64,000 bases of DNA from contig JAQBPO010000064.1 of assembly GCA_028287465.1 (NCBI GenBank), forward strand, positions 72,249-136,248, read 5' to 3'. This document shows, one piece after another, positions 1,434-31,608 of the stretch (positions are counted from its first letter, which is position 1; every line of letters starts with the position of its first letter). The translations under genes were made by a program, and so were the position numbers. A model generated the notes under the pieces. The model had not been told where the DNA came from. It was given only the letters and a program-made list of their open reading frames with translations, and did not search any database. This stretch comes from Fibrobacterota bacterium. GTDB lineage: Bacteria > Fibrobacterota > Fibrobacteria > UBA11236.

Positions 1434-1456
1434 CGGCAAAGCGGTGATGCGCGCCA

Positions 1457-3490
1457 TCAGGCGAAATCGGCGAAGCTTCTGTCGGCCGCATGGACGGCGC
1501 CTGAATTGCCCTTGAAGCGCCACCGCTTGCCTTGGGCCGAAGCCTTCAGGATCAAGTTGCGATCCTGGAAGCGGAGGATGGTTCCCGGAAAGGCCTCGCC
1601 CTTGACCCAGATGAAGCAATCCCCGGGATTGTACAACCGGGCCTCAAGCGCGCGCACCTCGGCGGCCAGGGATTCCCGCATCGGCTTGAGGATTTGCGTC
1701 ACCCCGCGCGAACGCTGTTCCAGCAACCGGATGTCGCCTTTCACGTCCGTGCCCCATCGGATCAACCCCTGCAACTTGGCCGCCATGATTTCCAGGAACG
1801 CCAAGTCGGTCTCGACCTCCTTGAAGGCGGCTTTCTTCCGGTTCAATTCCAATTCCACTTCGAAATCCTTGCCGACCTCAAGGATGGTCTTGACCCCCGT
1901 CCTGCTGCCGGCATTGTAGATCTCGATCCCGGTATAGGCCAGCAGGTGGCCTCCCACCACGGAATTGCCCAGGGTTTTCATGGTGATGGATTTCATGGCG
2001 CACAATTGCGCGTTCACCACTTCATTGTAGACGATGATGTCGGAATGCGACTCGATGCGCTGGTTCCGGATGAAGCCGATGCTCACCGAACTCAACTTCG
2101 ACTTGATCACGCCCTTTCCCGAACCCGTGAAACCGCCCTTGACCACGATGGCGCCCTCGGAAACGATGGATCCGTTCTCCACGACCCCGGAGATCTCCAC
2201 GTCGCCCTTGGCCTTGATTTCGAGGTTGTCGCGGACGTCCCCGAATATCTCCACCGAACCCGGAAATGCGATATTCCCCGTCTTCAAGGAAACGTCTTCG
2301 TTGATTTGCAGGACTTGCACGACCTCCGGCACCCCATTCGAAAGCACCAACCTGCCGTCCCGGGCGGCGATGACGAAGGCCGGATCGGATAGTTGAAGCT
2401 CGGTATTGCCGCCCAAGGCATGGCTGTAGGCGGCCACCGGTTTCGGCGGAATGGCCTGGCCGAACACATCAATGCCCACCGTTCCCGGGATCGGCGCGAT
2501 CACCTTGGATAGGGGCGTGCCTTTCTTGACGGTGCGGAAAAAGGAAAAGGACTTGAAGTCGACCCTGCCGGCTTTATCGGGCTCGGGCAGGAGGGGCTCC
2601 GGATTGATGAGCAATTCCAGGCGGCCGTTCTTCCCGGGGGTGCTGGCTTTACCCGAAAGGATCAACCCCTCCTGGTTTTTCCCGGTGGCGGCGAAAGCGT
2701 CGAAGGCCGACGCCACCTTGTTCATGTCCGGAGCGAACGCGAAATTCCGTTCCAGGATCATTTTCTCCAGGTACTTCATCGTCGGCTTGAAATCGTCGTC
2801 ATCCTCCTTCCGCAACAAGATGCGTACCGACATCCTGTCGTGCGAAACCCGGATGCAATCGCGGTCGGCGGTCCGGGGCCCCAGGATTTTGAAAGTGTTG
2901 TCCTCGACAACCAGGATCCCGCGCTTGAGGGCCACCCATCTGAACTCCTCCTCCAATATGGCATTCCCGGGCCTGGGAAGCGGGCTGTTCTCCGGACCGG
3001 TCGGAATGGCCGCACCGAAAACCCCGATGCCCGGAACGCCTTTCTTGATCCCGGTGAAACTCAGGATCAAGTCGCCGACTTCCACCAAGGTCGCGGCATC
3101 TACGGATTTTTCCGTGACGTCGAACGGTTCGTTCCCCAATCGGCACTTGACGCGGGTAAGCTCATCCTCTTCCATCAGATAGGACTTGGCGATCCGCAAA
3201 CCCAGGACTTCATCATCGGTGGGCGCCACGCCGCTGGCCACGATGATGGAGTGGATCTCCTCCAGGGTTTCCGCGAATTGCCCGTCCTCCGGTTTGCCCA
3301 GCAGGTTATGGGCCAATTGCAGGCTGGGCTTGTCTATGAATTCCGGGGCGATGCCGGCCTGGGCGAGCACCTGTTGCATCGATTCGACGTTCCCGTACTT
3401 CGACCTGGATTCTTCGGGCGTGAACCCATGGATGAGGAGCTGGGCCCCTAACCCCCCATTGCAGGGATTCACATCAATATGCATGCTCAA
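1457..3490 (-). CDS. FapA / DUF342 family protein (flagellar-assembly-protein-A-like; C-terminal beta-helical GxVxxGxI repeats)
   Basis: 677 aa. It has repeated segments of the type GNIAFPGSVEIFGDVRDNLEIKAKGDVEISGVVENGSIVSEGAIVVKGG, as in DUF342. It is convergent with the CheA-like gene. Confidence 0.55.
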   Translation of the reverse strand: MSMHIDVNPCNGGLGAQLLIHGFTPEESRSKYGNVESMQQVLAQAGIAPEFIDKPSLQLAHNLLGKPEDGQFAETLEEIHSIIVASGVAPTDDEVLGLRIAKSYLMEEDELTRVKCRLGNEPFDVTEKSVDAATLVEVGDLILSFTGIKKGVPGIGVFGAAIPTGPENSPLPRPGNAILEEEFRWVALKRGILVVEDNTFKILGPRTADRDCIRVSHDRMSVRILLRKEDDDDFKPTMKYLEKMILERNFAFAPDMNKVASAFDAFAATGKNQEGLILSGKASTPGKNGRLELLINPEPLLPEPDKAGRVDFKSFSFFRTVKKGTPLSKVIAPIPGTVGIDVFGQAIPPKPVAAYSHALGGNTELQLSDPAFVIAARDGRLVLSNGVPEVVQVLQINEDVSLKTGNIAFPGSVEIFGDVRDNLEIKAKGDVEISGVVENGSIVSEGAIVVKGGFTGSGKGVIKSKLSSVSIGFIRNQRIESHSDIIVYNEVVNAQLCAMKSITMKTLGNSVVGGHLLAYTGIEIYNAGSRTGVKTILEVGKDFEVELELNRKKAAFKEVETDLAFLEIMAAKLQGLIRWGTDVKGDIRLLEQRSRGVTQILKPMRESLAAEVRALEARLYNPGDCFIWVKGEAFPGTILRFQDRNLILKASAQGKRWRFKGNSGAVHAADRSFADFA

Positions 3491-3941
3491 TCTCGCCTTC
3501 CCATTTCCGCAAGACGGCGATCAGCTTTTCCTTTTCCTGCGGATCCAAATCCGCGGGCTTATGCGTCGCATCCAGGTATTTCGCGAACTGCTGGATATCC
3601 AACGGTTTGGACAGGAATCCCAAGACATTGGGGAATTTCCCCAGTTCCGATTTTTCCTTGAACTGGAATTCCGCCATGATGAGAACGGGAGCGGTCACCT
3701 TGGCCCGCAAAAGCCCTTTGAGAAAGCGGGGCGGATCGAGTCCCCGGGTGGGCAGGCCCAGAATGATGAGATGGTATTTCCGGGCCATTGCGTAGTGCAA
3801 GCCCACGGTTGCCGACTCGAAGGAATCCAGGGAATACTTCCTGGTCTGGCAGAACCTCTCGACCAATCTCAAAATCGCGGGCGGGGAGTTGATGTGGAGA
3901 AGCCGGCGCGTAGCCGGGGACGTCTCCTTGCGGGATTCCAT
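3474..3941 (-). CDS. CheY-like pseudo-receiver domain protein (the phospho-acceptor Asp and the acidic pocket are missing)
   Basis: 155 aa with REC-like topology. It has LIILG where LILD is expected, NSPP in place of the DD pair, and the conserved K is kept in FLSKP. It overlaps the FapA gene by 17 nt, so they form an operon. Confidence 0.45.
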   Translation of the reverse strand: MESRKETSPATRRLLHINSPPAILRLVERFCQTRKYSLDSFESATVGLHYAMARKYHLIILGLPTRGLDPPRFLKGLLRAKVTAPVLIMAEFQFKEKSELGKFPNVLGFLSKPLDIQQFAKYLDATHKPADLDPQEKEKLIAVLRKWEGEIEHAY

Positions 3942-4137
3942 TGTGTAGTAAGTAACGCACTACACTCGGGATCGAGTCAATTCTATTAGCAGAGGATATC
4001 CTTACAAGGCGTGCGCAATCCCTGGCATTTTACTTAAGTCGGTTTTCAAGGGGGTGCTTTTCCGTACTGTCGAATTTGCCGCCGGACCCCTAAAAGGGGT
4101 CCCCGCGCTTACGCGCTTTATCCGATGACCGAAAAAA

Positions 4138-4214
4138 TGGGGTGGACGACGGGACTTGAACCCGCGACCAGTGGAACCACAATCCACTGCTCTACCAACT
4201 GAGCTACGACCACC
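4138..4214 (-). tRNA. tRNA-His: tRNA-His (anticodon GTG) with genome-encoded G-1 and 3' CCA
   Basis: The reverse complement reads GGTGGTCGTAGCTCAGTTGGTAGAGCAGTGGATTGTGGTTCCACTGGTCGCGGGTTCAAGTCCCGTCGTCCACCCCA. The anticodon loop is TTGTGGT, and an extra 5' G sits opposite discriminator C, which is a His hallmark. It is very similar to E. coli tRNA-His. There is one U-U mismatch in the acceptor stem at positions 5-68. Confidence 0.85.
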
Positions 4215-4349
4215 GCGATGCCCGTTAATTTATAAACGACGCCGACTTATGCCAAGGTGAAAGCGGCCCGGGCGGGGCGTAATAGCGCTCGGAAGCGCCG
4301 GGAAGGACGGAGGGAAGCCCGAATGAGGGCGGAAAAGCGGGAGAGCGGC

Positions 4350-4592
4350 TCAGGCCTGTCTGGAAAGGACCCGGACCGGGCTCTCTTCCAGGGTGAATTC
4401 GGGGGAAACGTTCAGGTAGGTCTTGGCGTGGCCTTCCACTACCGTGGAGGCCTTGCGGGGCGGCGGAGGCAGGAGCTTTACGGTAAATTGATTGTCCCCG
4501 AACTTCCGGTTCTCATGATACATGAACACCGAAAACCCCAGCAGAAAGAGGGCGAAACCGGTGAAGAAAGTAGTGATCGCGTAGGTGAGCAC
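4350..4592 (-). CDS. small hypothetical membrane protein (one TM helix)
   Basis: 80-aa ORF with a hydrophobic N-terminal helix, AITTFFTGFALFLLGFSVFMY. The competing + strand ORF is Arg-rich and of GC-artefact type. Confidence 0.25.
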   Translation of the reverse strand: MLTYAITTFFTGFALFLLGFSVFMYHENRKFGDNQFTVKLLPPPPRKASTVVEGHAKTYLNVSPEFTLEESPVRVLSRQA

Positions 4593-4835
4593 ATGAGGAT
4601 TATAGCACCCGGCTTTTTTATTTGTCCATGCGCGGGGACGGTTTATTTGTCCGCTGGCATTGGTCCGGCATCAAAAACCCATAAGCGCATGAACCCGAAT
4701 AATGTTTAGAATCCAGGGTTTTTTTGGGAGGGTAGGGAGTATCTTTTCTTGCATTCCTGCGCCTGGGGGGCCGTTCGCGGGTTCGGGGGGTTGTGCCGTG
4801 GTTTCCACCATGCGTACCAAGAGGGGAAAAGGGTA

Positions 4836-6851
4836 ATGATGGCTCGAATCGGAGCTTTGCGTCCTGGCTTTACCGCGCTGACCGCCGCCGCGGCCGCCGG
4901 TTTCATCTCCGCGGCCGCGTTATGGCTGTCGGCTTGCAACGTTTTCGCGCCCTTGGCCGCGGACGGCGACAAGGATCTCACCTATCGGGGCCTTATCCTC
5001 AAAGGCAACGCCGCCATCAACGAGGAGGAATACGCGGATGCGGAAACCTACTTCGCCCGCGCCAAGGCCCTGAATCCCAAGGGTTCCGAAGCCTACCTCT
5101 ACCATTCCAAGGCCCTGGTAAGCCTTTACAAGATCGATTACAACTCCCTGAACGACGAGTTCAACGCCCGACGTAACAAGGACGGCACCGGCAAGAAGGG
5201 GATCCCGTTCGTCGATTCCGGCACCACCCTCGCCAAGATCGACAGCACCTATTATCCGGTGGCGCAGTCGGTGGAGAACCTGGAACACATCCTCCGCCAT
5301 TCCCGGGATACGGTCCTGATCCCCGGAGGCTATAAGCTCCTTCCGGACGGGGACACGGCCGGCGACGGGAAGGTATCGGAAGGCGTGGCCCGGCTCGACC
5401 TGGGCATCCTGCAGACCATCAAAGGCATGCTCGGGCCCCTCGACCTGGACGGCAACAACCATATCGACGACGCCTGCGGCCTCAACCTCTGCCCCGACAA
5501 AGGCCCCTGCCTCCAGAGCGCCGCCTACCTGAAGAAATGCAAGGAGGGCCTTGCCAGCGAGATCAACGGCTTCGAACGCTTCAAGCAACTGACGCGCAGC
5601 CTCGACATCAACGACCTCGACACCAAGGACCTCCGGGCCCGCAACGTCTCCAGCAACCCCAACGACATCAACGATTTCCTGGACAAGATGCAAGGGCCGA
5701 TCGCATCCTCGAGCTTCAACCTGGATTCCGTGACCGGAGCCATGAACAGCCACGGCGAGGCCGCCCTGAGCGGCCAGTTGTCCGAGATCGTCTCGAACGT
5801 CTCGGATCTGAGCAACTTCCTCTCCTACATGCGCTTCAACGACAACCTGGACAACGATTACGACGACCAGGACAGCTCGGGCAAGGGAACGCGCATGGTC
5901 TGGCATGACTACGACAAGGACGGAGGCATCCACTACGACTACGACGACGATGCGGTGACCCTGGCGGGATATACCGGGACCCCCCGCAATAACGAAGCCC
6001 ACAATATCGGGCACCCCCTGCATCGCATGCTCCACCCGGAGCTATACGTCAGATTCACGGACAGCTCCTGGGCCAAACGCCCCATCAGCAAGGACGCCAG
6101 CAAGAACGCCCGCGGCGCGACCATGATCAAGCATTGCCAGGATGCGGCCAAGACCCTGAACGTGGACGGCAAGGTGACGGACATCGTCATCGCCAACCTC
6201 GTCGCCAAGACCTGCTCGACCTACACCTCCATCCTCAAGTCCACGGTCCGGCCCCCGGCCCGGAGCGACTGGCAGTCCGGCACCTTCGGCGTCGACGAGG
6301 AGATGATCGACGAACGCGACAACGATTACGACGGCATCAAGGACGAGGACGCGCGCAACGCCCCGGGTATGGACGATGACGACGACGCCCTGCTTTCGGT
6401 CTCCATGATAGGGACCTCGCCGGCCCCCATGGTCTGGGCCGACGTTCCCGGGCACGCCAACAAATGCCCTGAGATCGACACCACCAAGGCCATGCTCCCC
6501 CCGCCCTTCGCCAAGCAGTTCTGCATCGGCTCCCTGGAGCATCGCATCTACCTGGCCCAGCACGGCGGCCGGGATACCCTGGCCGTCTACTACTCGCGGT
6601 TCCTGGGGGAGGGACCCAGCAAGAATTGCCTCGAGGACTTCGACAAGCTCGACCCCGCCTTCAAGGCCGCGGTGGGCCTGAAAACCTCTACCGATGACGC
6701 CGTGCTCGACGCCTGCCAATTCAAGCATATCTGGAAGGCCCCCAGGCCCGTCCATTCCGAATGGACCTCGGGCGTGTTCGGCATCGATGAGGAACTTCCG
6801 GACGGGGTCGATAACGACGGCGACGGCTGGATTGACGAGGACCTGAAATGA
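4836..6851 (+). CDS. secreted lipoprotein: TPR-like N-region, Cys-rich middle, duplicated Asp-rich calcium-binding-like (thrombospondin type-3-like) repeats
   Basis: Signal peptide with lipobox ...ALWLSAC. Start chosen at the MMARIG ATG (4836), which lies inside the longer ORF. Internal repeat W.SG.FG.DEE..D..DND.DG..DED occurs twice. There are many Cys residues. Confidence 0.5.
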   Translation: MMARIGALRPGFTALTAAAAAGFISAAALWLSACNVFAPLAADGDKDLTYRGLILKGNAAINEEEYADAETYFARAKALNPKGSEAYLYHSKALVSLYKIDYNSLNDEFNARRNKDGTGKKGIPFVDSGTTLAKIDSTYYPVAQSVENLEHILRHSRDTVLIPGGYKLLPDGDTAGDGKVSEGVARLDLGILQTIKGMLGPLDLDGNNHIDDACGLNLCPDKGPCLQSAAYLKKCKEGLASEINGFERFKQLTRSLDINDLDTKDLRARNVSSNPNDINDFLDKMQGPIASSSFNLDSVTGAMNSHGEAALSGQLSEIVSNVSDLSNFLSYMRFNDNLDNDYDDQDSSGKGTRMVWHDYDKDGGIHYDYDDDAVTLAGYTGTPRNNEAHNIGHPLHRMLHPELYVRFTDSSWAKRPISKDASKNARGATMIKHCQDAAKTLNVDGKVTDIVIANLVAKTCSTYTSILKSTVRPPARSDWQSGTFGVDEEMIDERDNDYDGIKDEDARNAPGMDDDDDALLSVSMIGTSPAPMVWADVPGHANKCPEIDTTKAMLPPPFAKQFCIGSLEHRIYLAQHGGRDTLAVYYSRFLGEGPSKNCLEDFDKLDPAFKAAVGLKTSTDDAVLDACQFKHIWKAPRPVHSEWTSGVFGIDEELPDGVDNDGDGWIDEDLK

Positions 6852-7975
6852 CGCGCAATACCGTTCTTTTCGCCGCCACCCTGGCCTTGGCCGCCGCGGG
6901 CCCCGCGAGCGTTTCCGCCGAGGCCGGCCCCCAGTTCCGCGACACCAAGTCGCAATCCCTGGGGCGCACCGGAGTCGCTTCTTCCCACGGCGGTACGGCC
7001 CTGTTCCTGAATCCCGCGGCCCTGGCGCGCTCGCAAGGCGGAGAGCTGGGCATGTCCATGGACCTGGGGGTGAATTCGGTCCTGGTGGACTATGCGTCCT
7101 GGGCCGCCGACAACTACAAGTACCTCAACAATATGGACTCCCTGCTGACCAAGATCGGCCCGGTGGACAACAAGTGGGCCCCCTTCTCCCAGTCGCTCAT
7201 GCTCTACGGCAATTGGGAAGGCGTCGGGTTCAGCGTCCTGTCGGATACGCGCTACAACCTCACCTTGGGCAAGGCTGTGGTGACGCCGGTGCCCGGCATC
7301 GGCGCCCTATCGGACCTGGTCCTGACGGCCGGCCGCGGGTTCAACGCCGAAGACGGCTACCGGTTCGGCTTCGCCCTCAAGTACATCTACCGGCTGCGCT
7401 TCGAGGATCGCCTGGTGGGCACCACGGACGAGGAGTTCTACAAGGTGAAGGAGTCCTGGGAAAAGCCGGACGCGGGATGGTCGGACAAGCTGGCCAAGAT
7501 CCAGGTGGCCGGCGATATCGCCGAAACCAAGCAGGGCGTGGGCGCCAATCTCGGCGCGGAAAAGGACATCAACGCGGATTGGACCGCCGGCCTCTCCCTC
7601 CTGGACTTCCCCACCGTCATGAACCAGCGGTTCACCCGGCCCGAAATCAATCTCGGCCTGGCGTTCCATCGCGACGTGGACTGGGTCCCGGACCTGGACA
7701 ACAAGTTGCTCGTGAACCTCGATTGGCAGCGCTTCCTGATCCCGGGCACGCCCTGGTTCAAGCAGCTTAAGGCCGGCGTGGCCATGGAAGGCTGGATGAA
7801 GAAGCGTCCGGTCAGCTATATCGGTGTCGGCCTGAACGACGGCTATCCCACCTTCGGCGTCCGCTTCGGCTATATCGTCTACCTGAGCTACGTCTACGTG
7901 GCGGAGGAAATCGGCACCTACCCCGGCCAGGAGAAGCTGAGCTTCCACAAGCTCGTCCTGCAAGCCGAAATTTAA
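6848..7975 (+). CDS. putative outer-membrane beta-barrel protein (signal peptide, alternating amphipathic strands, C-terminal aromatic-X pattern)
   Basis: N-terminus MTRNTVLFAATLALAAAGPASVSA. The start overlaps the upstream lipoprotein stop (ATGA), so the two are translationally coupled. The composition is Gly/Tyr/Asn-rich and beta-strand-like. Confidence 0.4.
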   Translation: MTRNTVLFAATLALAAAGPASVSAEAGPQFRDTKSQSLGRTGVASSHGGTALFLNPAALARSQGGELGMSMDLGVNSVLVDYASWAADNYKYLNNMDSLLTKIGPVDNKWAPFSQSLMLYGNWEGVGFSVLSDTRYNLTLGKAVVTPVPGIGALSDLVLTAGRGFNAEDGYRFGFALKYIYRLRFEDRLVGTTDEEFYKVKESWEKPDAGWSDKLAKIQVAGDIAETKQGVGANLGAEKDINADWTAGLSLLDFPTVMNQRFTRPEINLGLAFHRDVDWVPDLDNKLLVNLDWQRFLIPGTPWFKQLKAGVAMEGWMKKRPVSYIGVGLNDGYPTFGVRFGYIVYLSYVYVAEEIGTYPGQEKLSFHKLVLQAEI

Positions 7976-8897: not shown

Positions 8898-10004
8898 TTA
8901 TTCCGGAGAGGCGGCCGCGCCTGCGGGCGCAGACGATATCGACCCCGCCTGCGCGGAAACCGCGGGCTTGGGGACGAAGGGCGACCTTGCGGGACCCCTG
9001 CGGAGCCGGCCGAGCAAATCGAACGGGTCCTCCCAGATCAAAGCCCTGCCCGCGCCATCGGGGATCCCTGACCCCTTCGGTCCGCGGATGCCCAGGGAAG
9101 CGGTCAGGAAGCCCCGCTCTTTCATCCAGGCCGCGCAGAGGCCGGGCCACGTGGCCAGTTCGGGGAGATCGGGCGCGCCCGCCGCGCCGTTCGCCAGGCC
9201 GAAACCGTGGGGCCCATGATCGTACAGCTTCATCTGCGCGGGGACGCCCGCCTTCACCAGGGAATCGTAATAGATGATGGAATTGTCGACGAGCACCGTC
9301 CCATCGTCCTTGGCGTGCACCAGGAATGCTGGCGGGGTGGAGACATCCACGTGTTTCTCATTGGACAGGAAGCGCATGTCTTCCACCGAAGGATTGTCCC
9401 CCAGAAGGCTCTTGCGGGATCCGATGTGGGCGAACGGCCCCTCCATGGTGATCACGGGATAGCCCAGGATCTGGAACCAGGGCTTGCAGGATTGGCGATC
9501 GACCGAGTCCGCGGCCAGGGGATTGCCCGCGTCGTAATGCGTGGCCACCGTGGAAGCCAGGTGCCCGCCCGCGGAGAAGCCTACTATGCCTATCCGGTCC
9601 GGTTGGATCTTGTAGCGCTTGGCATTGGCCCGCGCCCAGCGCATGGCCCTCTTGGCGTCGTTCATCTCGATGGGGTGGTGATAAGGCGTGACGCGGTACT
9701 TGAGCACGAAGGCGGAGACGCCCAGGCCGTTCAGCCACTTGGCGACCTGGATGCCTTCCTTGTCCGTGGCCAGATGGTCGTACCCGCCGCCGGGGCAGAT
9801 GACCGCGGAGGTGCCGGTGGAGGGATTGACGCTCGTCGGGTAGAAGGTAAGGGAGGGTTTGGAGGCGGCCGTGGTGTCCGTGGCGCCCGGAGCGCCCTTC
9901 GGCCAAAGCGGTTCCGCGGTCTGACCCGACGCCGTTCCGGTCATAGTGGCCAGGAAAGCGGAAAGCAAGAACGCGCCAAAGGCTTTCGGCCGGTAAGCTG
10001 ACAC
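8898..10004 (-). CDS. secreted alpha/beta-hydrolase esterase (acetyl-esterase / carbohydrate-esterase-like), paralog 1
   Basis: Signal peptide. Oxyanion motif PGGGY, nucleophile elbow GFSAGGHLAS, then HAKDD and HGFGL acid/His motifs. Confidence 0.65.
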   Translation of the reverse strand: MSAYRPKAFGAFLLSAFLATMTGTASGQTAEPLWPKGAPGATDTTAASKPSLTFYPTSVNPSTGTSAVICPGGGYDHLATDKEGIQVAKWLNGLGVSAFVLKYRVTPYHHPIEMNDAKRAMRWARANAKRYKIQPDRIGIVGFSAGGHLASTVATHYDAGNPLAADSVDRQSCKPWFQILGYPVITMEGPFAHIGSRKSLLGDNPSVEDMRFLSNEKHVDVSTPPAFLVHAKDDGTVLVDNSIIYYDSLVKAGVPAQMKLYDHGPHGFGLANGAAGAPDLPELATWPGLCAAWMKERGFLTASLGIRGPKGSGIPDGAGRALIWEDPFDLLGRLRRGPARSPFVPKPAVSAQAGSISSAPAGAAASPE

Positions 10005-10090: not shown

Positions 10091-11131
10091 TCAGCGCTGG
10101 CGCCCTGCGGCATCAATGAAGCCCCATTCCCCCGTCTCCGCGCGGAATCCGAAACCCCTGACCGCGTCCTGGTCCCGGCGGGCCTCAAGGGAGGCCATGG
10201 GCCGGCGCAGGGAGGTGGCCGTCTTGAAGAAGCCTTGCTTGTCCATCCAGGCGGCGGCCAGGGCCGGCCAGGTGGCCAGGATGGGATCGTTGGGAGCCCC
10301 GCCCACGCCGTCCGCCAGGCCGAAACCATGCCCGCCCTTTTCGTACAGCTTGAGCTCGGCGGCCACGCCGCGCCGCTTGAGGGAATCGTAATAGGCCTGG
10401 GAGTTCCGCACCGGGACAGCATTGTCGTCCTTGGCGTGCAGGAGGAATGCCGGGGGTGTCTTGGACGTTACCTGTTTCTCGTTGGACAGGGAGTCGATCA
10501 GGATCTGGGACGGCGCGTCCCCCAGGAGGGCCAGGCGCGATCCGCCGTGGGTGAAGGCCGCGTCCATGGTGATGACCGGATAGCCCAGCAGGGACCAATC
10601 GGGCCGGCATCCTTGGCGATCGATGCTGTCGGCGGCCGCGGCGTTCCCGGAATCGTAATGCGTGGATACCGTGGACGCGAGGTGGCCCCCGGCGGAGAAA
10701 CCCAGCACCCCCACGCGCTTGGGATCGATGCCATACTGCCGTGCATGGGACCTGACCCAGCGCACCGCGCGCTGCCCGTCCCACATCTCGATGGGATGGC
10801 GGTATCCGGCGGAGCCCAGGCGGTACTTGACCACGAAGGCGGAGACGCCCAGGGTGTTGAGCCATTTGGCGGGTTGCAGGCCTTCATGATCCATGGCGAG
10901 GCCCGTATAGCCTCCGCCGGGGAAAACGACCACGGCGGCCCCGTTCCCCTTCCCCGCCGCTACGGGATATGGGGTGATGGTGGGCTTGTCCACGGCGGCC
11001 GTGCCTTTGGCGCCGGGCGCCCCTCCGGGCCAGAGCAGGGCTTCCACCTGGGCCGTCGCCGCCAAAGGCAGGATCAGGAAGGTGGAAATACAGAAACGGA
11101 TCAGACCGGTACGGACGCGTGCTGGCAACAT
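10091..11131 (-). CDS. secreted alpha/beta-hydrolase esterase, paralog 2
   Basis: About 55-60% identical to paralog 1 with the same motifs (GFSAGGHLAS, HAKDD, HGFGL). Start placed at the internal M before signal peptide MLPARVRTGLIRFCISTFLILPLAATAQ. The longer ORF N-terminus is Arg/Pro-rich. Confidence 0.6.
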   Translation of the reverse strand: MLPARVRTGLIRFCISTFLILPLAATAQVEALLWPGGAPGAKGTAAVDKPTITPYPVAAGKGNGAAVVVFPGGGYTGLAMDHEGLQPAKWLNTLGVSAFVVKYRLGSAGYRHPIEMWDGQRAVRWVRSHARQYGIDPKRVGVLGFSAGGHLASTVSTHYDSGNAAAADSIDRQGCRPDWSLLGYPVITMDAAFTHGGSRLALLGDAPSQILIDSLSNEKQVTSKTPPAFLLHAKDDNAVPVRNSQAYYDSLKRRGVAAELKLYEKGGHGFGLADGVGGAPNDPILATWPALAAAWMDKQGFFKTATSLRRPMASLEARRDQDAVRGFGFRAETGEWGFIDAAGRQR

Positions 11132-11381
11132 TTCCCCCCCATTTCGGCCGGCCGGAACCCTCCGGGGCCATGACCGGAAACCACGCATCGGTGGTTTCGC
11201 GGGCCCCGGGTCACGGCTTTGCCGGCCATGCCTGTCTTGAAAAGGTAAGCAAGGTTGGGGAAAATCACCGCTAACCATTCAGTAAAAACGGCAAAACCGC
11301 CTACCCGGAGTTAAATTAGGTCTTTTCTCCTTGAACCGGGGCTATGGTAAACATGGTATTGGACATCTCCCGTAGAGGATA

Positions 11382-11897
11382 ATGGGTCTGGGAACCATCA
11401 AGGCGGACATGGGAATAGCGGCTCAAAAGGGATTCACCTTTCTCGAGGTCATGGTCGTCGTGATCGTGATGGGCCTGCTCGCGCTCCTGGCCTTCAATCC
11501 CATGCGGAACTATCTGCATCGGATGGAATTCAAGAACTGCAGCCAGAACGTCAAGCATCTGATCCAGACCGCGCAGTCCAAGGCCATGGGCAATCCCAAT
11601 GTCCATATCGGGGTCTTTTTCGACCGGTCGACCACCCCGCATAAGGCATTCCTGTTCCAGGACAAACTCAACCCGGCCTCTTACCGCTATGACGGCTCCG
11701 GGGATCCCGCCTACCTGCAGCCGGAGAAACTCAAGGCGGGAATGTCCTTCAAGACCATACCGGGGTATCCGCCCGAAATCGTCTTCCGGGGGGACGGCTC
11801 GGCCTGGAAGAGCATGAAGATCATCCTCACCGACGGTACCCTGCAGGATACCCTGGACATCCTTGCCAGCACGGGCCGGGTACGGGTGGGCAAATGA
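11382..11897 (+). CDS. type IV pilin-like pseudopilin (GspH/FimT-like) with prepilin cleavage/methylation N-terminus
   Basis: Leader ...AQKG|FTFLEVMVVVIVMGLLA with Glu at +5. An AGAGGA Shine-Dalgarno lies 5 nt upstream of the ATG at 11382. Its stop overlaps the next start (ATGA). Confidence 0.6.
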   Translation: MGLGTIKADMGIAAQKGFTFLEVMVVVIVMGLLALLAFNPMRNYLHRMEFKNCSQNVKHLIQTAQSKAMGNPNVHIGVFFDRSTTPHKAFLFQDKLNPASYRYDGSGDPAYLQPEKLKAGMSFKTIPGYPPEIVFRGDGSAWKSMKIILTDGTLQDTLDILASTGRVRVGK

Positions 11898-12313
11898 TCG
11901 CCGGGCCCGTCCCATCCGGCCGCGGCGGCGGGCAGTCCGGACTCACCCTGATGGAGATCATGATCGCCATCGTGGTCATCGCCATAGGCGTGGGCGTATT
12001 CGTCACCATGCAGAAGAACTCGGGCAGCAACCTGGCCGGGAACAGCAAGATGATGCGGGCGGGGCAGCTGGTGGAAAAGCACGTAGAGGCCATGCGGATC
12101 GGCATCGCGCGGGACACGGCGGGCAATTGGCCGCCCAACGACACCTCCTACACCGAAGCCGGGCTCAAGGTGGAGCGGAGGATCTCGCAGGCGGTATCGC
12201 CCAAGACCCTGACGGTCCTCTCCAATGTCCGCAAGGTGGATATCATCGTTTCCTGGGGCAAGTCGCACCAGGACAGCCTGGACGTAACGACCTATGTATC
12301 GCGCAGATTCTGA
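11894..12313 (+). CDS. pseudopilin (GspI/PilV-like), prepilin-type N-terminus
   Basis: GQSG|LTLMEIMIAIVVIAIGV with Glu at +5. It is translationally coupled to both neighbours. Confidence 0.55.
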   Translation: MIAGPVPSGRGGGQSGLTLMEIMIAIVVIAIGVGVFVTMQKNSGSNLAGNSKMMRAGQLVEKHVEAMRIGIARDTAGNWPPNDTSYTEAGLKVERRISQAVSPKTLTVLSNVRKVDIIVSWGKSHQDSLDVTTYVSRRF

Positions 12314-13097
12314 ACCGCAAAGGGGATTCACCCTCGTGGAAATCACGGTGGCCCTGGTGGCCTCCGGGATCCTCATCGCCGGGCTCGCGCGCTTTTTCCG
12401 GGACTTCAACCATTCCTACAACAGCCAGGAACAGGTGAGCGATCGCGACCTCAACGCCCACTACGCGGTGCGCCGCCTGAGCGAGACCCTGATGTCGGCC
12501 GGAGCCAACCTGCCCAGCGAGGATTGGAGCATCCTCAACCTCCCGGAAGGCAGCCCGGGGCACCGGTTGCGCCTTTCGGTCAATCCGCGCGGGGGCGTGC
12601 AATACATGGCGGCTCCCCTGGCGGGAGTTCTCGAGGTCACGGTCGATGACGCCAAGGGTTTCGCCGAGGCCACGGCCATCCTCGCGGATCCCCAGGCCGA
12701 TGGCGTACCGACCTTCAAGGTTGAAATCGATCAGGCCTACAACAGCGACGGGTTCGTCAACGGTTTCAAGGTCACGGGCGCCAGCGCCGTCCTGCGGCTC
12801 TCGTCCACCCTTACCCTCGAGGCGGGCGACGCCGTCTATGCCTACGCCGTCGAGGATTACCGGCTCCTGGACGGCAACCTGATGCTGAACGACATGGTGC
12901 TCGCGGAGAACATCCAGAACCTCACCTTCACCGCCTATACGACCGGCCAATCGACGACCACCCAATGGTCCGCCATGCGCTCGGCCAAGATCCAGATCAC
13001 CGCCCGCACCCGCAACCGGGATCCGGCCCTGACCGACAATGACGGCTACCGTCTCATCGATCTTTCGATGGACGTGCTCCTGAGGAACCGCCTATGA
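12294..13097 (+). CDS. pseudopilin (PilW/GspJ-like), prepilin-type N-terminus
   Basis: QRG|FTLVEITVALVASGILIAG. Size and position fit the third minor pilin. Confidence 0.55.
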   Translation: MYRADSEPQRGFTLVEITVALVASGILIAGLARFFRDFNHSYNSQEQVSDRDLNAHYAVRRLSETLMSAGANLPSEDWSILNLPEGSPGHRLRLSVNPRGGVQYMAAPLAGVLEVTVDDAKGFAEATAILADPQADGVPTFKVEIDQAYNSDGFVNGFKVTGASAVLRLSSTLTLEAGDAVYAYAVEDYRLLDGNLMLNDMVLAENIQNLTFTAYTTGQSTTTQWSAMRSAKIQITARTRNRDPALTDNDGYRLIDLSMDVLLRNRL

Positions 13098-14851
13098 TGG
13101 ATCCGCGACCGTCTCCGCAACCTTCCGGGAACCTGCCCGCGGCCCTTCCCGGCCGCGGCCAGTCCGGGTTCATCCTCATCTTCTCCATCCTTATGATGCT
13201 CGGGGTATCCACCCTCGCCATCGGCATGGTCTACAACGCCCATCATGGCCAGGTTACGGCGCAGAACTACAAGAACCGCCTGCGCGCCTTCTACGCGGCG
13301 GACGGCATGCGCGCCCTGTTGGCGCAGGAGGTCATGGACGGCAACGTCAAGCGTTACATCGACACCTCCCTATCGGGCGAGATCGAAGGCGAAGTCTGGG
13401 ACGGGGCCGGAGGGGGGATCGCGGCCTTGAAATCGGCCATGAGCGTCCGCGGCCCGGATCGCAAGGTGACTTCGCCCTACCTTGGATCCAACTACAAGAA
13501 CGTCACCAACTACGGGATACGCTGGCGCGGTTACCTCATCCCTCCGGCCACCGGGTCATACACCTTCTTCGTCCGCGCGGATGATGAGGGGGAATTCTAC
13601 CTGAGCAGCGACGAGAGTCCCGCCAACCTTTCCGGGGCACCCATCGCCAGAATCGGATCCTGGGTCTTCCAATGGCCTACCTCCGGATCCGGGGTTTCCC
13701 CATCCGTATCCCTCAAGATCGGTGTGCGGTACTATTTCGAATTCCTCCACTCCCAGGGCATCGGAGCGGGGTTCGGCCAGGTCGGCTGGCGCGGCCCCAA
13801 GTACATGACCGAGCGCCCCGTCCCGGGAAAGCGCTTGGCCGCCTTCGGATCGAAAAAGGAGAAGTGGGACACCGTCAAGGTCGGCATGGGCAAGGTCAAA
13901 TACGCTCTCTCCGAGGCGGGGCCCCTGGTCTACACCCTGAACACGGAAGCCATCATGGGAGGCAAGGGCGATACCACCTTCCGCTCCCCGCTGACCCAGA
14001 CCCTCAGCATGCGCGGGGACAATCCCGCGCCGCCGGAAACCCTATGGCAGCGCGTGATCTTCTACGACTTCCATTCGGACCGGAGCAATCCGGATTTCGA
14101 TCGCGGCGGCCCGGATTTCTTCGAGAACAAGGTCAGCCCGGGCATGGTGAAGACCAAAGGTCTCCGCTACACCACGGAGAATGCATCGTTCTTCGGCCTG
14201 GACTCCATCGGCAAGCCGATGCTGGGCCCCTCGCCCGATTTCAATTGCGGCATCGACCGCTGGTTCACCGAATGGAAGCCGGGCTGGTTCGGCACCTACG
14301 CATACGCGGGCGGAGGGGGCGACTGCACCGAGTCCAATCCCGGCCATGACCAGACTTACAGGAACGTCGTGATACGGGACTCGCTCCCCTTCATCCAACG
14401 CAAGGACCTGGGCGCCAACGCCTACCAGTTCAAGCGGTTCGGCACCGATGAGGAGGCCGCTTTCACGCCCCTGGACGGGCGCGGCCTGGGTAACGAGGGC
14501 GCTACGGACAAGCTCGGGACGCCGCGCAACTATTCCTTCTGCATGGAGCTCCACTCCCAGTTCGAGCACACTTCGGGCATGAATTTCGAATTCAACGGGG
14601 ACGATGACGTCTGGCTCTACATCAACGATTCCCTCGTGATGGATCTCGGCTTCGTGCACAAATCCACCTACGGAATCGTGGCCCTGGACGATCTGCCCCT
14701 GACCTTCGGCGAAACCTATCCCCTGGATTTCTTCTATTGCGAAAGGCAGCGGTTCGGCTCGAGCATCGATCTGATCACCAACCTGCCCGTGCTCCTGAAA
14801 GCGGGCAAGCCGACTTCCAGCTGGAAGCGGGACTATGGCAACCTGGAATAG
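13094..14851 (+). CDS. GspK/PilX-like minor pilin fused to PA14 and fibro-slime domains (candidate pilus-tip carbohydrate adhesin)
   Basis: N-terminus GQSG|FILIFSILMMLGVSTLAIG with no Glu at +5, which is typical of GspK/PilX. PA14 segment YGIRWRGYLIPPATGSYTFFVRADDEGEFYLS. C-terminal fibro-slime signature GDDDVWLYINDSLVMDLGFVH...YPLDFFYCERQ. Confidence 0.6.
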   Translation: MMDPRPSPQPSGNLPAALPGRGQSGFILIFSILMMLGVSTLAIGMVYNAHHGQVTAQNYKNRLRAFYAADGMRALLAQEVMDGNVKRYIDTSLSGEIEGEVWDGAGGGIAALKSAMSVRGPDRKVTSPYLGSNYKNVTNYGIRWRGYLIPPATGSYTFFVRADDEGEFYLSSDESPANLSGAPIARIGSWVFQWPTSGSGVSPSVSLKIGVRYYFEFLHSQGIGAGFGQVGWRGPKYMTERPVPGKRLAAFGSKKEKWDTVKVGMGKVKYALSEAGPLVYTLNTEAIMGGKGDTTFRSPLTQTLSMRGDNPAPPETLWQRVIFYDFHSDRSNPDFDRGGPDFFENKVSPGMVKTKGLRYTTENASFFGLDSIGKPMLGPSPDFNCGIDRWFTEWKPGWFGTYAYAGGGGDCTESNPGHDQTYRNVVIRDSLPFIQRKDLGANAYQFKRFGTDEEAAFTPLDGRGLGNEGATDKLGTPRNYSFCMELHSQFEHTSGMNFEFNGDDDVWLYINDSLVMDLGFVHKSTYGIVALDDLPLTFGETYPLDFFYCERQRFGSSIDLITNLPVLLKAGKPTSSWKRDYGNLE

Positions 14852-14925
14852 ACCGTGTCCCGCCCGGGACTATGGCAACCTGGAATAGACCTCGTCCCGC
14901 CCGGGACCATGGGAATCTTGGGTAG
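14815..14925 (+). repeat. about 37-bp direct tandem repeat x3; copy 1 is the last 37 nt of the pilin-adhesin gene including its TAG
   Basis: ...gggactatggcaacctggaatag / accgtgtcccgcccgggactatggcaacctggaatag / acctcgtcccgcccgggaccatgggaatcttgggtag. Each copy ends in TAG. Confidence 0.8.
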
Positions 14926-14931
14926 CGGAAC

Positions 14932-15954
14932 TCACTTCGCATTTTGACTTCTCCCGCCGAAGGCCGGAGAATCGGGACTGACGGCGGGCCTTCCCAGGAT
15001 CCCCCGGGCTTCCATCCATTTCGCGCATTGCGACGGCCAGGTGGACAGCTGCTCCATGCCCGGTTCCCCGTTCCGCTCCGCCGCCAGGCCGAAAGCATGG
15101 CCCCCCTGCACGAAGGCCAGGAACTCCACGGGTACCTTGGCCCGCCGCAACGCTTCCGCATAGGCCTGGCTGTTGGCGATGGCCACGACGGGATCGGCCT
15201 CGGCATGCACCAGGAAGGCCGGCGGCGCGCCCCCTTCGACCTGGGTTTCAAGGGACAAATAGGACAGGGTGGCGGCATCGGGCGAGCGCCCCAGCAGATT
15301 GATGCGCGAGGCGCGGTGGGTGAAGGGCGCCTCCATGGAGATGACCGGGTAGATCAGGATCTGGAAATCCGGACGGCAGGAAACGCGCTCGACCGGATCC
15401 GCCGCTGCCGGATCGCCTCCGTCATTGTGGGTCGCCACGGTCGCCGTCAGATGGCCGCCCGCGGAAAACCCCAGCATGCCTATCCGGCGGGGATCGAGAT
15501 GGAAGCGCGCGGCATTGGCCCGCACCCAGCGCACCGCCCTTTGCCCATCCTCCATCTGCGCGGGATGGTGGAACGCCGGTCCCAAGCGGTATTCGAGCAG
15601 GAAGGCATGGATCCCCAGGGACCGCAGCCACAGGGAGGGCTCCACCCCCTCCTTCTTGCGGGCGAGCATGCCATAGGCGCCGCCGGGGCATACCACCATG
15701 GCGGCTCCGTTGGCGGAGTCCCTGACGGGAGCGTATAGGGTGAGGAATGGCGCGGATCGGGCAGAATCCTTCCCGATGAAGGCCACCTGCGGCTCCTTGG
15801 ACGCGGCCGGATCGATGCGGATGCTCCGGGGCCGGGTGGCCCCGGCGCCGTGGGCCGAAAGGACGATGGCCAGGATTCCGGCGATGCCGGAAAGCGGCGG
15901 CCGGCGCAACGCCGGGATTCCGGCCCGCGCGGGGTAACGTCGGGGGGACGGCAC
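14932..15954 (-). CDS. secreted alpha/beta-hydrolase esterase, paralog 3
   Basis: Motifs PGGAY, GFSAGGHLTAT, HAEAD and HAFGL. It is convergent with the pilin operon. Confidence 0.6.
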   Translation of the reverse strand: MPSPRRYPARAGIPALRRPPLSGIAGILAIVLSAHGAGATRPRSIRIDPAASKEPQVAFIGKDSARSAPFLTLYAPVRDSANGAAMVVCPGGAYGMLARKKEGVEPSLWLRSLGIHAFLLEYRLGPAFHHPAQMEDGQRAVRWVRANAARFHLDPRRIGMLGFSAGGHLTATVATHNDGGDPAAADPVERVSCRPDFQILIYPVISMEAPFTHRASRINLLGRSPDAATLSYLSLETQVEGGAPPAFLVHAEADPVVAIANSQAYAEALRRAKVPVEFLAFVQGGHAFGLAAERNGEPGMEQLSTWPSQCAKWMEARGILGRPAVSPDSPAFGGRSQNAK

Positions 15955-16573: not shown

Positions 16574-18361
16574 TTATCGTAAACCCAGGCCCCGTATCTC
16601 GTTGCCGCGGAGGAAGCCGAACTTGGCCACCTTGAGCCGCTTTCCCCGCTCCACGTTGTCGCGCGGATCCTGCCCGTAGGAGAATTCCGCCCGCATGATA
16701 TAGACCCCGGTGGAAATGAGATTTCCGTCATGGGAGACGGGAAACCAGGCGAACCGAAGCAGAAACGCGCGGGTTTCCGGATCCCGCGCGAGCTTGCCCG
16801 ATAGCAGGTCCTCGCGGGTGACGGTGAGTTCGGTCCGGTTCACGAACTGGCCCAGGTTGTCGAAGACGGCCAGCTTCAGGGTCGCCGGATGGGAGAGCTT
16901 GAAGCCGAAAACGGCAACCCCGGGATTCCCTTCCGCCCCGGTATTGCCCCGGATCCAATCCCCCGCGGATTCGGGATGCAGGGGGACATAGGTCTTGGCC
17001 TCCCCTTGCGCATCCTTGCTCGTCAGGAGCACGAAGGGATCCTTGACCTGGGCGGGCTTCACGGGCGTGCCCGAGGTTACCCCCTTCTCCGCGACCAGTT
17101 CCCCGATGACGATATCCGGCAACCGCGTTTCCACCGGGCGCCATGGATTGGCGGGATCGGCGGGTTTGCCCTGGGCGTCTTTCACCTGGGAAACCCCGGC
17201 GATGGCCACCTTGTAGCCGTCCCCGGGGACATCGGGGGATCCGGGCGCGATGGTGAAGGTCCACTGCCGGGAGAACCCGTTGACGGCGGAATCGGCGCGG
17301 ACGGCGGACATATCCACCCTCACCTCATTGCCGGAGGGATCGAGGAACTTGAGCACGGAAGGCGCGTCCACCTTCACCGGTCCGGAGAATAGCACCACCA
17401 GCTGGACCCCCGGGATCTCGTTCAGGTTCGTATCCGCCACCACCTTCCAGGCCCGGGAAATCTCCGGCCCCACGACCGCCGGCGGATCAAGCGGCTTGTC
17501 GGTGTTCTTGAGTTCAAGCGAGGTCGTGATGGTCAGGCGGGAAGCCTCGACGCGGCGCTCGGCGAAAAAGAAATCGAGATAATAGGGCTTCCCGTCCGCC
17601 AGTCCCAGGGTGTCCAGATTGACCTCGGCGAATTCCGCCGCATGCAGGCCCCCCAGATCGATCACGAGTTTATCGTTTATGAATACCCACACGTCATCAT
17701 CCCCGCGGAAGGCGAATTGCTGGCCGGACCCCTGCTTGTACGTGAACCGGGAGTGGAACTCGAAGGTGAACCCGAAATTGTGCTTGCCGAGATCGACTCC
17801 CTCGGAAATACCGGTCTGCCGGTGGCCGAAGGTCGTCGTCACGGATGGGACCTGGGGCTTCAGGGAAGGGACCTTGTCGTCATCAAGGGGGAAGAATTCC
17901 TGGTTGTCGTACTTGTAGACGTTGCCGTCCTTGGTGAAGTTGACATCCAGGAAAAAGGCCCGGTTGATGTCCGGGGAACGGGTGGTGTACCACTCGTTGA
18001 ACCGGCTGCGGAAGCAATTGGGAGGGGTATCGTACCCGGGCTTGAGAGCGGGCCCGGCCTCGTCGCGGTCGTAGGGGATCAGTCCCGCGAGCCTGTCCGG
18101 ATTGGCGTCCGCTGAGGAAAGCGCGGTCTGCACGGCCCCCTTGGCCGCGGAAGGCCTGTCGAAACAGCCCCAGCCTTCCCAGCCGCCGGGATTCCATGTT
18201 TGATTGAAATCCGGATGCCCGCCGGTCGTCGTCTTGGGCAGCAATTCCTGGAAATCCCGGGCGATGCCCGTCAGATTCAATTGGGCCTGCGCCGCCAGCG
18301 CGGCCCCCAGCAGAAATACCCCGGCTTTTCCAATCCACGCAAACCATATGCTTCCCCGCAT
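16574..18361 (-). CDS. secreted fibro-slime domain protein with a C-terminal sorting-type domain
   Basis: Signal peptide. Fibro-slime core FRGDDDVWVFINDKLVIDLGGLHAAEF...YYLDFFFAERR. C-terminus LKLAVFDNLGQFVN...ISTGVYIMRAEF resembles T9SS CTDs. Confidence 0.6.
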   Translation of the reverse strand: MRGSIWFAWIGKAGVFLLGAALAAQAQLNLTGIARDFQELLPKTTTGGHPDFNQTWNPGGWEGWGCFDRPSAAKGAVQTALSSADANPDRLAGLIPYDRDEAGPALKPGYDTPPNCFRSRFNEWYTTRSPDINRAFFLDVNFTKDGNVYKYDNQEFFPLDDDKVPSLKPQVPSVTTTFGHRQTGISEGVDLGKHNFGFTFEFHSRFTYKQGSGQQFAFRGDDDVWVFINDKLVIDLGGLHAAEFAEVNLDTLGLADGKPYYLDFFFAERRVEASRLTITTSLELKNTDKPLDPPAVVGPEISRAWKVVADTNLNEIPGVQLVVLFSGPVKVDAPSVLKFLDPSGNEVRVDMSAVRADSAVNGFSRQWTFTIAPGSPDVPGDGYKVAIAGVSQVKDAQGKPADPANPWRPVETRLPDIVIGELVAEKGVTSGTPVKPAQVKDPFVLLTSKDAQGEAKTYVPLHPESAGDWIRGNTGAEGNPGVAVFGFKLSHPATLKLAVFDNLGQFVNRTELTVTREDLLSGKLARDPETRAFLLRFAWFPVSHDGNLISTGVYIMRAEFSYGQDPRDNVERGKRLKVAKFGFLRGNEIRGLGLR

Positions 18362-31460: not shown

Positions 31461-31608
31461 GATTGGCCTTCGAAGCCGAGGTCGACGGAATGCAGCCGGA
31501 ATCCCAAGGATCCCGATCCGCCTCCGTTGCCCCCCGTTCCGATAGTCCGGTCCCATACTGCGTCCCGTCCGGCCCAGATCCCGGACGCCGCGAGGAGTTT
31601 CGGGCATC

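Follow-up and report, generated by a model that had tools for sequence, protein, structure and literature searches.

Apical minor pilins of the GspK/PilX/PilK family, such as Escherichia coli GspK in the GspK-I-J complex (3ci0) or the PilX_N-defined PilX1-3 proteins of Myxococcus xanthus, are encoded last in H-I-J-K-ordered cassettes, have a Gly at position -1 of the prepilin cleavage site and no Glu at position +5 (Glu5), and can accommodate, as in GspK, an extra domain inserted in the pilin fold (PMC7541494, PMC8179133). The modular type IV pilins combine a pilin module with grafted adhesion or lectin modules that are expected at the filament tip, examples being Streptococcus sanguinis PilB, with a vWA domain, and PilC, with a ConA-like lectin (PMC8179133, PMC9934059). 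The published catalogue of these proteins, which is keyed on the N_methyl signature IPR012902, comprises more than 1,200 proteins in 264 architectures, among them 13 N_methyl-PA14 proteins (9 + 4); the published tables also list 76 proteins combining PA14 with PilY1 (Dataset S2), and the fibro-slime domain (IPR011874) is absent from them (PMC8179133). Here we describe a locus of an uncultured Fibrobacterota bacterium (assembly GCA_028287465.1, contig JAQBPO010000064.1) that shares features with all these proteins. Within the 64,000 nucleotides (nt) analysed, hereafter the window, to whose positions our coordinates refer, the four consecutive plus-strand genes g1-g4 are interpreted, with a probability of roughly 60%, as a translationally coupled minor-pilin cassette for an initiation and tip complex, in which g4 would be a modular adhesin for polysaccharides, displayed at the tip of a type IV filament that is most probably a type IVa pilus.

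The open reading frames (ORFs) of the cassette lie at 11382-11897 (g1, 171 amino acids (aa)), 11894-12313 (g2, 139 aa), 12294-13097 (g3, 267 aa) and 13094-14851 including the stop codon (g4, 585 aa). The start of g2 overlaps the stop of g1 in an ATGA (11894-11897), g2 and g3 share 20 nt (12294-12313) and a further ATGA (13094-13097) places the g4 start over the g3 stop; the coordinates, overlaps and N-termini given in a preliminary description of this DNA were all reproduced when ORFs and junctions were checked. The operon lies between two esterase genes, of which the upstream one is divergent and the downstream one convergent. The products of g1, g2 and g3 reach 25.8, 21.8 and 26.8 bits against the Pfam N_methyl model (PF07963, gathering cut-off 21.2 bits) and also pass the TIGR02532 cut-off, their signals being AAQKG/FTFLEV, GGQSG/LTLMEI and EPQRG/FTLVEI, respectively (the slash marks the predicted cleavage site). 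On these signatures the three are bona fide prepilin-type proteins, as had been recognized from their N-termini. The I-J-K gene order is near-universal in minor-pilin operons (PMC13533445), and the order, sizes and overlapping junctions of g1-g4 match this synteny, with g1 in the GspH/FimU, g2 in the PilV/GspI and g3 in the PilW/GspJ position, followed by the PilX/GspK-type g4. It is only because of order and size that we regard g1-g3 as equivalents of H/I/J or FimU/PilV/PilW; the matches of their sequences to NCBIfam models of individual pilin types, such as that of g2 to PilV (TIGR02523, E 8.6e-07) and that of g1 to Verru_Chthon cassette protein D (E 4.8e-04), are weak, below cut-off and confined to the N-terminus. 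The assignment of the operon to a GspH/I/J/K- or FimT/PilV/W/X-type set thus holds for gene order and size and finds no counterpart in family models for g1-g3. Orthologues of g1 share an invariant FRGDGS / STGR core. In the g3 family, which amounts to 53 proteins, Glu occupies position +5 in all 28 homologues in which the motif was found (of 31), and the AlphaFold2 model of g3 (predicted local distance difference test score, pLDDT, 88.1) consists of a helix at residues 14-68 followed by beta strands, for which Foldseek returned a weak match to XcpW (3nje_B, E 0.07).

The fourth protein, identical to the NCBI entry JWP91_3140 (annotated as hypothetical), starts with a 25-aa leader peptide (13094-13168) ending in Gly25, the predicted prepilin-peptidase site, and continues with a pilin alpha1 helix (aa 26-81, 13169-13336) outlined by both the AlphaFold2 model and the PilX_N alignment. 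Comparison of 34 full-length homologues with 29-78% identity revealed that this Gly is invariant (34/34) and that the leader, of 7-36 aa, is poorly conserved. Position +1 is occupied by F, Y, V or M (Phe in g4) and position +5 by F (28), V (3) or L (3) and never by Glu, in line with the earlier remark that the fourth gene lacks this residue as GspK and PilX do. In the 34 homologues 21-22 consecutive uncharged residues come after the Gly, a stretch far exceeding a Sec signal's hydrophobic core in length, and the helix carries the conserved block NYKNR..AFYA.DGM..LLAQE. The N-termini therefore score as class III prepilin signals and not as ordinary signal peptides, and the g4 pattern is, as judged from the aligned sequences, that of the Glu5-less GspK/PilX class. 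The absence of a match of g4 to N_methyl or TIGR02532 is expected because it has no Glu5. PilX_N (PF14341) matches 17 of the 34 homologues at E <= 1 (best E 4.6e-06; one of them with a precomputed hit), and its alignment to g4 is in register with the cleavage site, residues 24-71 falling on model positions 1-48.

The AlphaFold2 model of g4 (pLDDT 82.5) displays the two elements of the pilin fold, a long alpha1 helix (56 residues, 26-81) and a beta-sheet, together with two larger beta domains (residues ~97-250 and 316-562). The small sheet (aa 251-313, 13844-14032) comprises four strands, 259-263, 266-276, 279-288 and 296-305. In structure comparisons GspK was the best non-lectin match of the pilin core, GspI, EpsI and XcpV matching as well, and the GspK/GspI-like part includes the sheet and not the helix alone; the model hence suggests that alpha1 and the small sheet form the pilin core of g4. 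The proposal of a GspK/PilX-like fourth member is thereby supported by its Gly-1/no-Glu5 motif, by PilX_N similarity at the family level and by structural similarity to GspK. The protein differs from the GspK/PilX pilins in lacking the T2SSK alpha-domain and any GspK/PilX equivalog match, in having a PA14 lectin as its insert and then a 250-residue fibro-slime module after the sheet, and in the lack of a PilY1 gene nearby.

Both of these modules, already named in the preliminary description, score above the respective model cut-offs. The PA14 lectin-like domain (aa ~97-250, 13382-13843), located between the helix and the small sheet, matches PF07691 at residues 135-243 with E 8.2e-18 (65 bits, cut-off 24) and has the PA14 beta-sandwich fold, and the fibro-slime module (aa 314-565, 14033-14788) matches TIGR02148 (Fibro_Slime) at residues 478-564, nt 14525-14785, with E 1.6e-29 (102.2 bits, cut-off 45). 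The latter module is larger than the ~90-residue TIGR02148 core, and in tblastn searches the matched g4 sequence, from residue ~314 onwards, falls where the mature chain of conventional fibro-slime proteins with a Sec signal begins. Its core is itself PA14-like, since the Pfam PA14 match overlaps it in the fibro-slime protein encoded at 16574-18361, and contains a GDDDxW motif present in 34/34 homologues, G502-D505 and W507 being invariant. The structural matches of the lectin part are sugar-binding PA14 domains, namely the RsgI dyad (the best one), Flo5, Epa and a Marinomonas adhesin. D163 and D164 of g4, conserved in 30/34 and 29/34 family sequences, align with the DD of RsgI4 and Lg-Flo1, and these residues and those of the GDDD motif may correspond to the CBL1 calcium loop (DcisD motif). 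The closest PA14 structures, those of RsgI, bind pectin or xylan, RsgI proteins being membrane-anchored polysaccharide sensors (PMC6852018). The g4 modules are predicted to bind sugars. The same PA14-like module with GDDDxW occurs in the fibro-slime proteins of Fibrobacter succinogenes, implicated in cellulose adhesion alongside type IV pili (PMC4668043, PMC4704652), although these are multidomain proteins of 600-2,300 aa in which the module follows a Sec signal, with no pilin neighbours and without the C-terminal motif discussed below.

The arrangement goes far beyond what chance would produce, and further support comes from the distribution of the family. About 47 full-length homologues of g4 were retrieved; in this family, as in that of g3, the source-labelled members are all from Fibrobacteres/Fibrobacteria and most members are unlabelled metagenome proteins. 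In 185,579 species genomes there are four with a full-length homologue, plus one N-terminally truncated Chitinispirillaceae copy, and none of the full-length homologues retrieved belongs to the genus Fibrobacter. An exhaustive HMMER scan of 1.84 billion representatives yielded 9,924 PA14 or fibro-slime relatives, of which about seven clusters at 50% identity match g4 end to end. Three prepilin genes directly precede the g4 homologue in 11 of 12 distinct contexts, all from uncultured Fibrobacterota or unlabelled metagenome contigs, the g1-g2-g3-g4 order thus being kept in relatives; around the other fibro-slime genes of Fibrobacterota, neither a motif scan nor a lineage-specific hidden Markov model (HMM) picked up a prepilin gene. 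The whole cassette is duplicated in tandem in one locus (L004) and present in two copies in another (L006), and g4 alone is duplicated in L001. The tandem g4 paralogues of L004 are 79% identical in alpha1 and 80% in the tail, and 36% in PA14 and 32% in the N-terminal part of the fibro-slime module. In other relatives the PA14 position is occupied by different modules: P0048 carries a CBM6/CBM35 carbohydrate-binding module (CBM) within the same type of cassette (L085), and a second search tier gathered proteins that have the helix block at the N-terminus and the sheet in common with g4, as well as fibro-slime and the tail, and differ in their inserts, which are CBM4-like in P0203 (1gui, E 3.3e-07), CBM32 in P0258 (4zy9, E 1.1e-32) and, in P0162, P0196 and P0208, ~180 residues long with no match among PDB sequences. 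P0243 is a 1,683-aa multi-module version of the same scaffold. Since the inserts differ and the rest is shared, helix, sheet, fibro-slime module and tail make up a constant scaffold and the carbohydrate-binding module is the variable part. This module swapping, read from sequence comparisons, is the strongest evidence here for a polysaccharide adhesin and reinforces the carbohydrate-binding role first proposed; it also suggests for the fibro-slime module a common role that would not determine specificity.

The last ten residues of g4 (aa 576-585, SWKRDYGNLE, 14819-14848) deserve separate attention. On region averages this tail is the most conserved segment of the protein, with a top-residue frequency of 0.78 vs 0.70 in the fibro-slime core, and is separated from the fibro-slime module by a variable 10-residue spacer (0.42). 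W577 and R579 are invariant within its W-x-R-x-Y-G motif, which is kept in 9 of 10 relatives with divergent inserts and was not found at the end of ~70 other fibro-slime proteins. The latter lack the tail and show an unrelated continuation or a different stop, so that the tail was rejected as a part of the fibro-slime fold. Among C-terminal sorting signals, those to be weighed are the C-terminal domains of type IX secretion, PEP-CTERM and the outer-membrane beta-signal; this possibility was also discarded, the tail having ten residues, an end in Asp/Glu (rarely Asn) instead of an aromatic residue and no transmembrane segment. On the other hand, pilins of the PilK/GspK type have been reported to need a final beta-strand (PMC13533445; bioRxiv 10.64898/2026.09.18.752573, both 2026), given in cis in GspK and in CpaL (PMC13533445). 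The CpaL/TadG protein of the Caulobacter crescentus Tad pili is a pilin-like protein of ~600 residues that lacks the canonical key residue and for which the place of the first tip subunit has been predicted (PMC11870444). Its small pilin module at the N-terminus precedes a large adhesin insert, and a beta-strand at the extreme C-terminus returns to the pilin sheet (PMC13533445). CpaL differs from g4 in its vWA domain, against PA14 and fibro-slime, and in its Tad (type IVc) loci with CpaJ and CpaK, against an H-I-J-K-like cassette, the docking of the tail being in g4 an inferred feature. PilY1/PilC is a large adhesin sitting on the minor-pilin complex, its constant carrier bearing at the N-terminus a lectin-type module that varies. 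Its short conserved tail at the extreme C-terminus is disordered, with low pLDDT, when modelled alone, as the g4 tail is, and uses beta-strand addition to anchor the protein (bioRxiv 10.64898/2026.09.18.752573). PilY1, in contrast to g4 with its pilin N-terminus, is not a pilin and bears a Sec signal and an IPR008707 beta-propeller; Pfam scans of g4 and its 34 homologues retrieved no propeller family. Because the tail fits the published description of a cis strand, we propose that it may act as a cis beta-strand plug.

Besides encoding the tail, the end of g4 overlaps a 37-nt tandem repeat of 2.3 copies (14828-14912, plus strand; Tandem Repeats Finder score 149, 93% matches) that spans the stop codon. 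The 22 nt that end the gene (DYGNLE-stop) are repeated without a mismatch at 14867-14891, 0 such recurrences being expected by chance, and each repeat unit holds the palindrome GTCCCGCCCGGGAC. The closest relative (L005) has no tandem repeat at the same place, and the element could be a rearrangement scar or be terminator-like.

Bringing these observations together, the products of g1-g4 would be inserted in the inner membrane via their class III signals and cut after the conserved Gly by a prepilin peptidase. The g4 protein would occupy the apical position because it lacks Glu5, as do members of the GspK/PilX/PilK family, with g2, g3 and g1 stacked beneath it, and the complex would serve as a template for a major pilin encoded elsewhere in the genome. 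The small GspK/GspI-like core would carry a swappable carbohydrate-binding module after the helix and then the constant PA14-like fibro-slime module, and the extended filament would display Ca2+-type lectin modules binding plant or microbial polysaccharide. The C-terminal tail probably folds back as the terminal beta-strand, completing the pilin sheet and locking g4 to g3. The protein would in this manner join roles that are split between PilK/PilX and PilY1 in classical type IVa pili. With its pilin core, PA14 and fibro-slime, g4 falls under the definition of a modular pilin (Raynaud et al. 2021) while not matching the IPR012902 signature, and it departs from the described ones in being of the apical PilK type, in holding a module inside the pilin fold, between helix and sheet, and not only as a C-terminal appendage, and in its conserved tail. 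The preliminary description remarked on the unfamiliarity of a pilin-anchored fibro-slime domain; pilins with grafted lectin modules, PA14 among them, had been catalogued before. It is tempting to speculate further that g4 unites in one chain an apical pilin of the PilK/PilX type and an adhesin of the PilY1 type, that its W-x-R-x-Y-G terminus is a cis plug strand licensing assembly of the tip complex, that fibro-slime is a dedicated constant tip-display scaffold of type IV filaments onto which CBMs are shuffled, and that this scaffold was recruited independently in Fibrobacterota and Planctomycetota; we hold these four propositions, when taken jointly, as a tentative reading that may well be wrong, this grade applying to the set as a whole.

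Several observations weigh against a tip-displayed adhesin of a type IV filament. A six-frame prepilin-motif scan and Pfam searches of the large ORFs disclosed no major pilin, ATPase, platform, secretin or peptidase in the window, as had been stated for the first four, nor did the motif scan find a prepilin-motif gene besides the operon; pilus or secretion machinery is likewise missing within 6-10 kb in all 12 contexts. The globular parts of g1-g3 match no GspH/I/J or PilV/W model above cut-off (NCBIfam and Pfam, window proteins), their orthologues yielded no Pfam match to GspH (7 of g1), to T2SSI or PilV (9 of g2) or to families of the GspH/I/J or PilV/W type (31 of g3), and the orthologue profiles of the three proteins hit solely the alpha1 helices of solved pilins among PDB sequences. 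The PilX_N score of g4 itself (13.1 bits, E 0.1) is below the gathering score of 25.5, and the GspK-specific models T2SSK and NF037980 do not match it (E <= 0.1), so that g4 is not filed as a GspK orthologue. The AlphaFold2 monomer leaves the tail undocked, with pLDDT < 50 from residue 570. One homologue (P0045, 620 aa; L087 3818-5680) stands alone with no g1-g3 upstream, and keeps the pilin N-terminus and the tail. Finally, the evidence for adhesion by fibro-slime proteins in F. succinogenes concerns large multidomain proteins and not the isolated domain (PMC4668043). As to the missing machinery, all surveyed Fibrobacteres genomes carry pilB/C/D/M/N/O/Q/T (PMC4704652), and the minor-pilin clusters of M. 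xanthus have been described as working with one shared machine (PMC7541494). The earlier view of an orphan complex is accordingly right in that no machinery lies nearby and misleading in that such isolation is not unusual. Minor-pilin operons are commonly found apart from machinery genes. The Verru_Chthon cassette A-D (TIGR02596-02600) is another set of four prepilin-type genes with one very large member away from machinery; it belongs to other phyla and has no significant sequence relationship to g1-g4, and we know of no PA14 or fibro-slime annotation for its large member.

The cassette could alternatively be the GspH-I-J-K tip of the periplasmic pseudopilus of a type II secretion system (T2SS), with the g4 modules engaging secreted glycoside hydrolases, periplasmic glycans or the secretin. 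The structural preference of the pilin core for GspK, with GspI, EpsI and XcpV behind it, would suit this explanation, as would the label of type II secretory pathway pseudopilin PulG that some sources give to g3 homologues, the reported expression of type II secretion genes by F. succinogenes on cellulose (PMC4668043) and the location of a Planctomycetales fibro-slime gene within a T2SSE/T2SSF cluster. However, no T2SSK, NF037980, GspH, GspI or GspJ match above cut-off was obtained, the sole type-specific weak match is to PilV, and swappable CBM4, CBM6/35 and CBM32 modules for insoluble polysaccharides together with diverging duplicated cassettes better fit an exposed adhesin. The gsp genes of a T2SS usually form one large operon, and none of them is nearby in the 12 contexts, whereas Fibrobacteres genomes carry pilT and pilMNOPQ (PMC4704652). 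We therefore consider a T2SS pseudopilus unlikely. Even less weight is given to the idea that g4 is no filament subunit at all and that an uncleaved signal anchor, or a membrane anchor derived from a pilin, tethers its lectin ectodomain to the inner membrane or the cell envelope, g1-g3 being unrelated pseudopilins that are just co-transcribed. The absence of the N_methyl signature, the sub-threshold PilX_N score of g4, the membrane anchoring of the RsgI sensors that are the best structural match of its lectin part (PMC6852018) and the homologue without g1-g3 are compatible with such an anchor. They have to be set against the invariant Gly-1 followed by F/Y/V/M at +1, as at a prepilin cleavage site, against a GspK/GspI-like fold that takes in the sheet, and against the overlapping start and stop codons and near-universal synteny that tie g4 to three bona fide prepilins. 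An anchor would, moreover, give the conserved terminal tail no role, and a periplasmic lectin for insoluble polysaccharide would make little sense in a diderm.

A different question is what the tip-displayed adhesin would bind. Conceivable ligands in place of plant polysaccharide are the bacterium's own exopolysaccharide or glycans on prey, host or kin cells, the binding of which would serve to aggregate cells or to form biofilms: yeasts and the Marinomonas adhesin rely on PA14/GLEYA domains for adhesion between cells, the CBM32 insert is similar to modules that bind chitosan and alginate, and the position of the cassette relative to the esterase genes is not fixed. We judge this improbable in view of the genes for plant cell-wall degradation nearby, i.e. 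three PaeX/AxeA1-like esterases in the window and the pectate lyases that adjoin the cassette in L001, and of the CBM4 and CBM6/35 inserts, whose typical ligands (CAZy) are beta-glucans and xylan; the pectin or xylan binding of the closest PA14 structures (PMC6852018) points in the same direction.

Outside Fibrobacterota the link between fibro-slime and pilins was followed in three loci by hand and with Pfam/NCBIfam, the local HMM of the pilin N-terminus being too lineage-specific for Planctomycetota. Phycisphaera sp. RI_241 (L082) encodes two ~860-aa paralogues (1278-3848 and 3910-6522), each starting with a GspK/PilX-like segment, containing DUF7305 and having fibro-slime at the C-terminus, which sit among prepilin genes and of which one matches NF037980 with E 0.0015. 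Six full-length homologues of this fusion were found in all, and its relatives P0117 and P0118 have no fibro-slime part; the C-terminal similarity of the fusions to these two, noticed by eye, is too weak to be used. The Phycisphaera proteins seem to represent, in a different phylum, a fusion of pilin and fibro-slime of independent origin. In Planctomycetales bacterium ZRK34 (CP050848 2130870-2143454; L030 53-6603) a gene for a 261-aa secreted fibro-slime protein, in the position usual for PilY1, closes a cluster that consists upstream of a T2SSE ATPase fragment, a T2SSF platform protein, a prepilin, a 760-aa protein with a PilX-like N-terminus (by eye only) and another prepilin, the two prepilins being weak matches. 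Around twenty small fibro-slime proteins (~250-320 aa), mostly from Planctomycetota, end ~28 residues after the domain in [ST]-x-[AL]-[FY]-D-stop (L026, L028, L030, L031, L040, L042, L046-L048, L050, L060, L061, L063, L066, L068, L070-L072, L076 and L084), a terminus for which the role of a trans plug or of a sorting signal is conceivable. The Planctomycetota cases are compatible with a general link between fibro-slime and type IV filaments and too few to establish it.

With regard to its surroundings, the operon is flanked by minus-strand genes (8898-10004, 10091-11278 and 14932-15954) for three BD-FAE esterases that are paralogues of one another and resemble PaeX and AxeA1, i.e. pectin and xylan acetyl esterases. 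These three genes are contiguous in L088, a syntenic locus in which the cassette has another place within the same gene block, so that it has moved relative to the esterases, which weakens their adjacency as a functional link. Two overlapping plus-strand genes without Pfam match (4749-6851 and 6848-7975, 700 and 375 aa) are kept as a pair in L088 (707 and 375 aa) immediately upstream of the cassette. A weak sigma-70-like promoter candidate precedes g1 (11237-11265, plus strand, 9/12 consensus positions); there are 3 such sites in the region vs 1.1 expected, which is not evidence of function, and the promoter- and terminator-like matches at the operon ends are weak and do not outnumber those found after shuffling of the sequence. 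The window contains three fibro-slime genes, namely g4 and two on the minus strand for proteins of 595 aa (16574-18361; domain at residues 193-283, N-terminus an ordinary Sec signal by eye) and ~356 aa (47936-49006), both without a pilin N-terminus or W-x-R-x-Y-G tail. A DUF4423 gene and genes for DUF2341+Laminin_G_3 proteins (23370-24218, 36985-38862 and 38929-40833) are also present, and the same pair of families occurs within ~8-10 kb of the cassette in L003 (9639-12244) and L086 (16616-19230), which makes it a possible recurrent neighbour. DUF4423 is a Fibrobacter paralogous family, and its presence together with the three fibro-slime genes agrees with the Fibrobacterota origin of the window. 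Further away, a cobalamin riboswitch (53.3 bits, 31212-31463, plus strand) lies upstream of a TonB-dependent receptor gene (31609-33657), and a CbiZ-domain protein is encoded at 41815-43506 on the minus strand.

Modular pilins, PA14-pilin and PA14-PilY1 combinations included, were known; what the g4 family adds is a pilin of the apical PilX/GspK type in which a PA14 or CBM insert is combined with constant fibro-slime and tail segments. Our literature search found no paper joining fibro-slime with PilX, GspK or pseudopilin, and catalogues of modular pilins keyed on the N-methyl signature miss apical subunits that lack Glu5. As a candidate for a natural PilK-type pilin with its own adhesin and terminal plug, g4 bears on the beta-strand-addition tip model put forward in 2026, and with 585 residues it is a compact protein for the biochemistry of the fibro-slime domain. 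Fibrobacter studies have treated fibro-slime proteins and pili as separate adhesion factors with no molecular link (PMC4668043, PMC4704652); the single-chain fusion outlined above, if true, would physically connect the two in cellulose adhesion. Fibrobacterota are specialist degraders of plant fibre, and in some of their uncultured relatives a pilin incorporates the fibro-slime module beside exchangeable CBMs, the cassette thus providing a testable model for a retractile filament that would grip polysaccharide.

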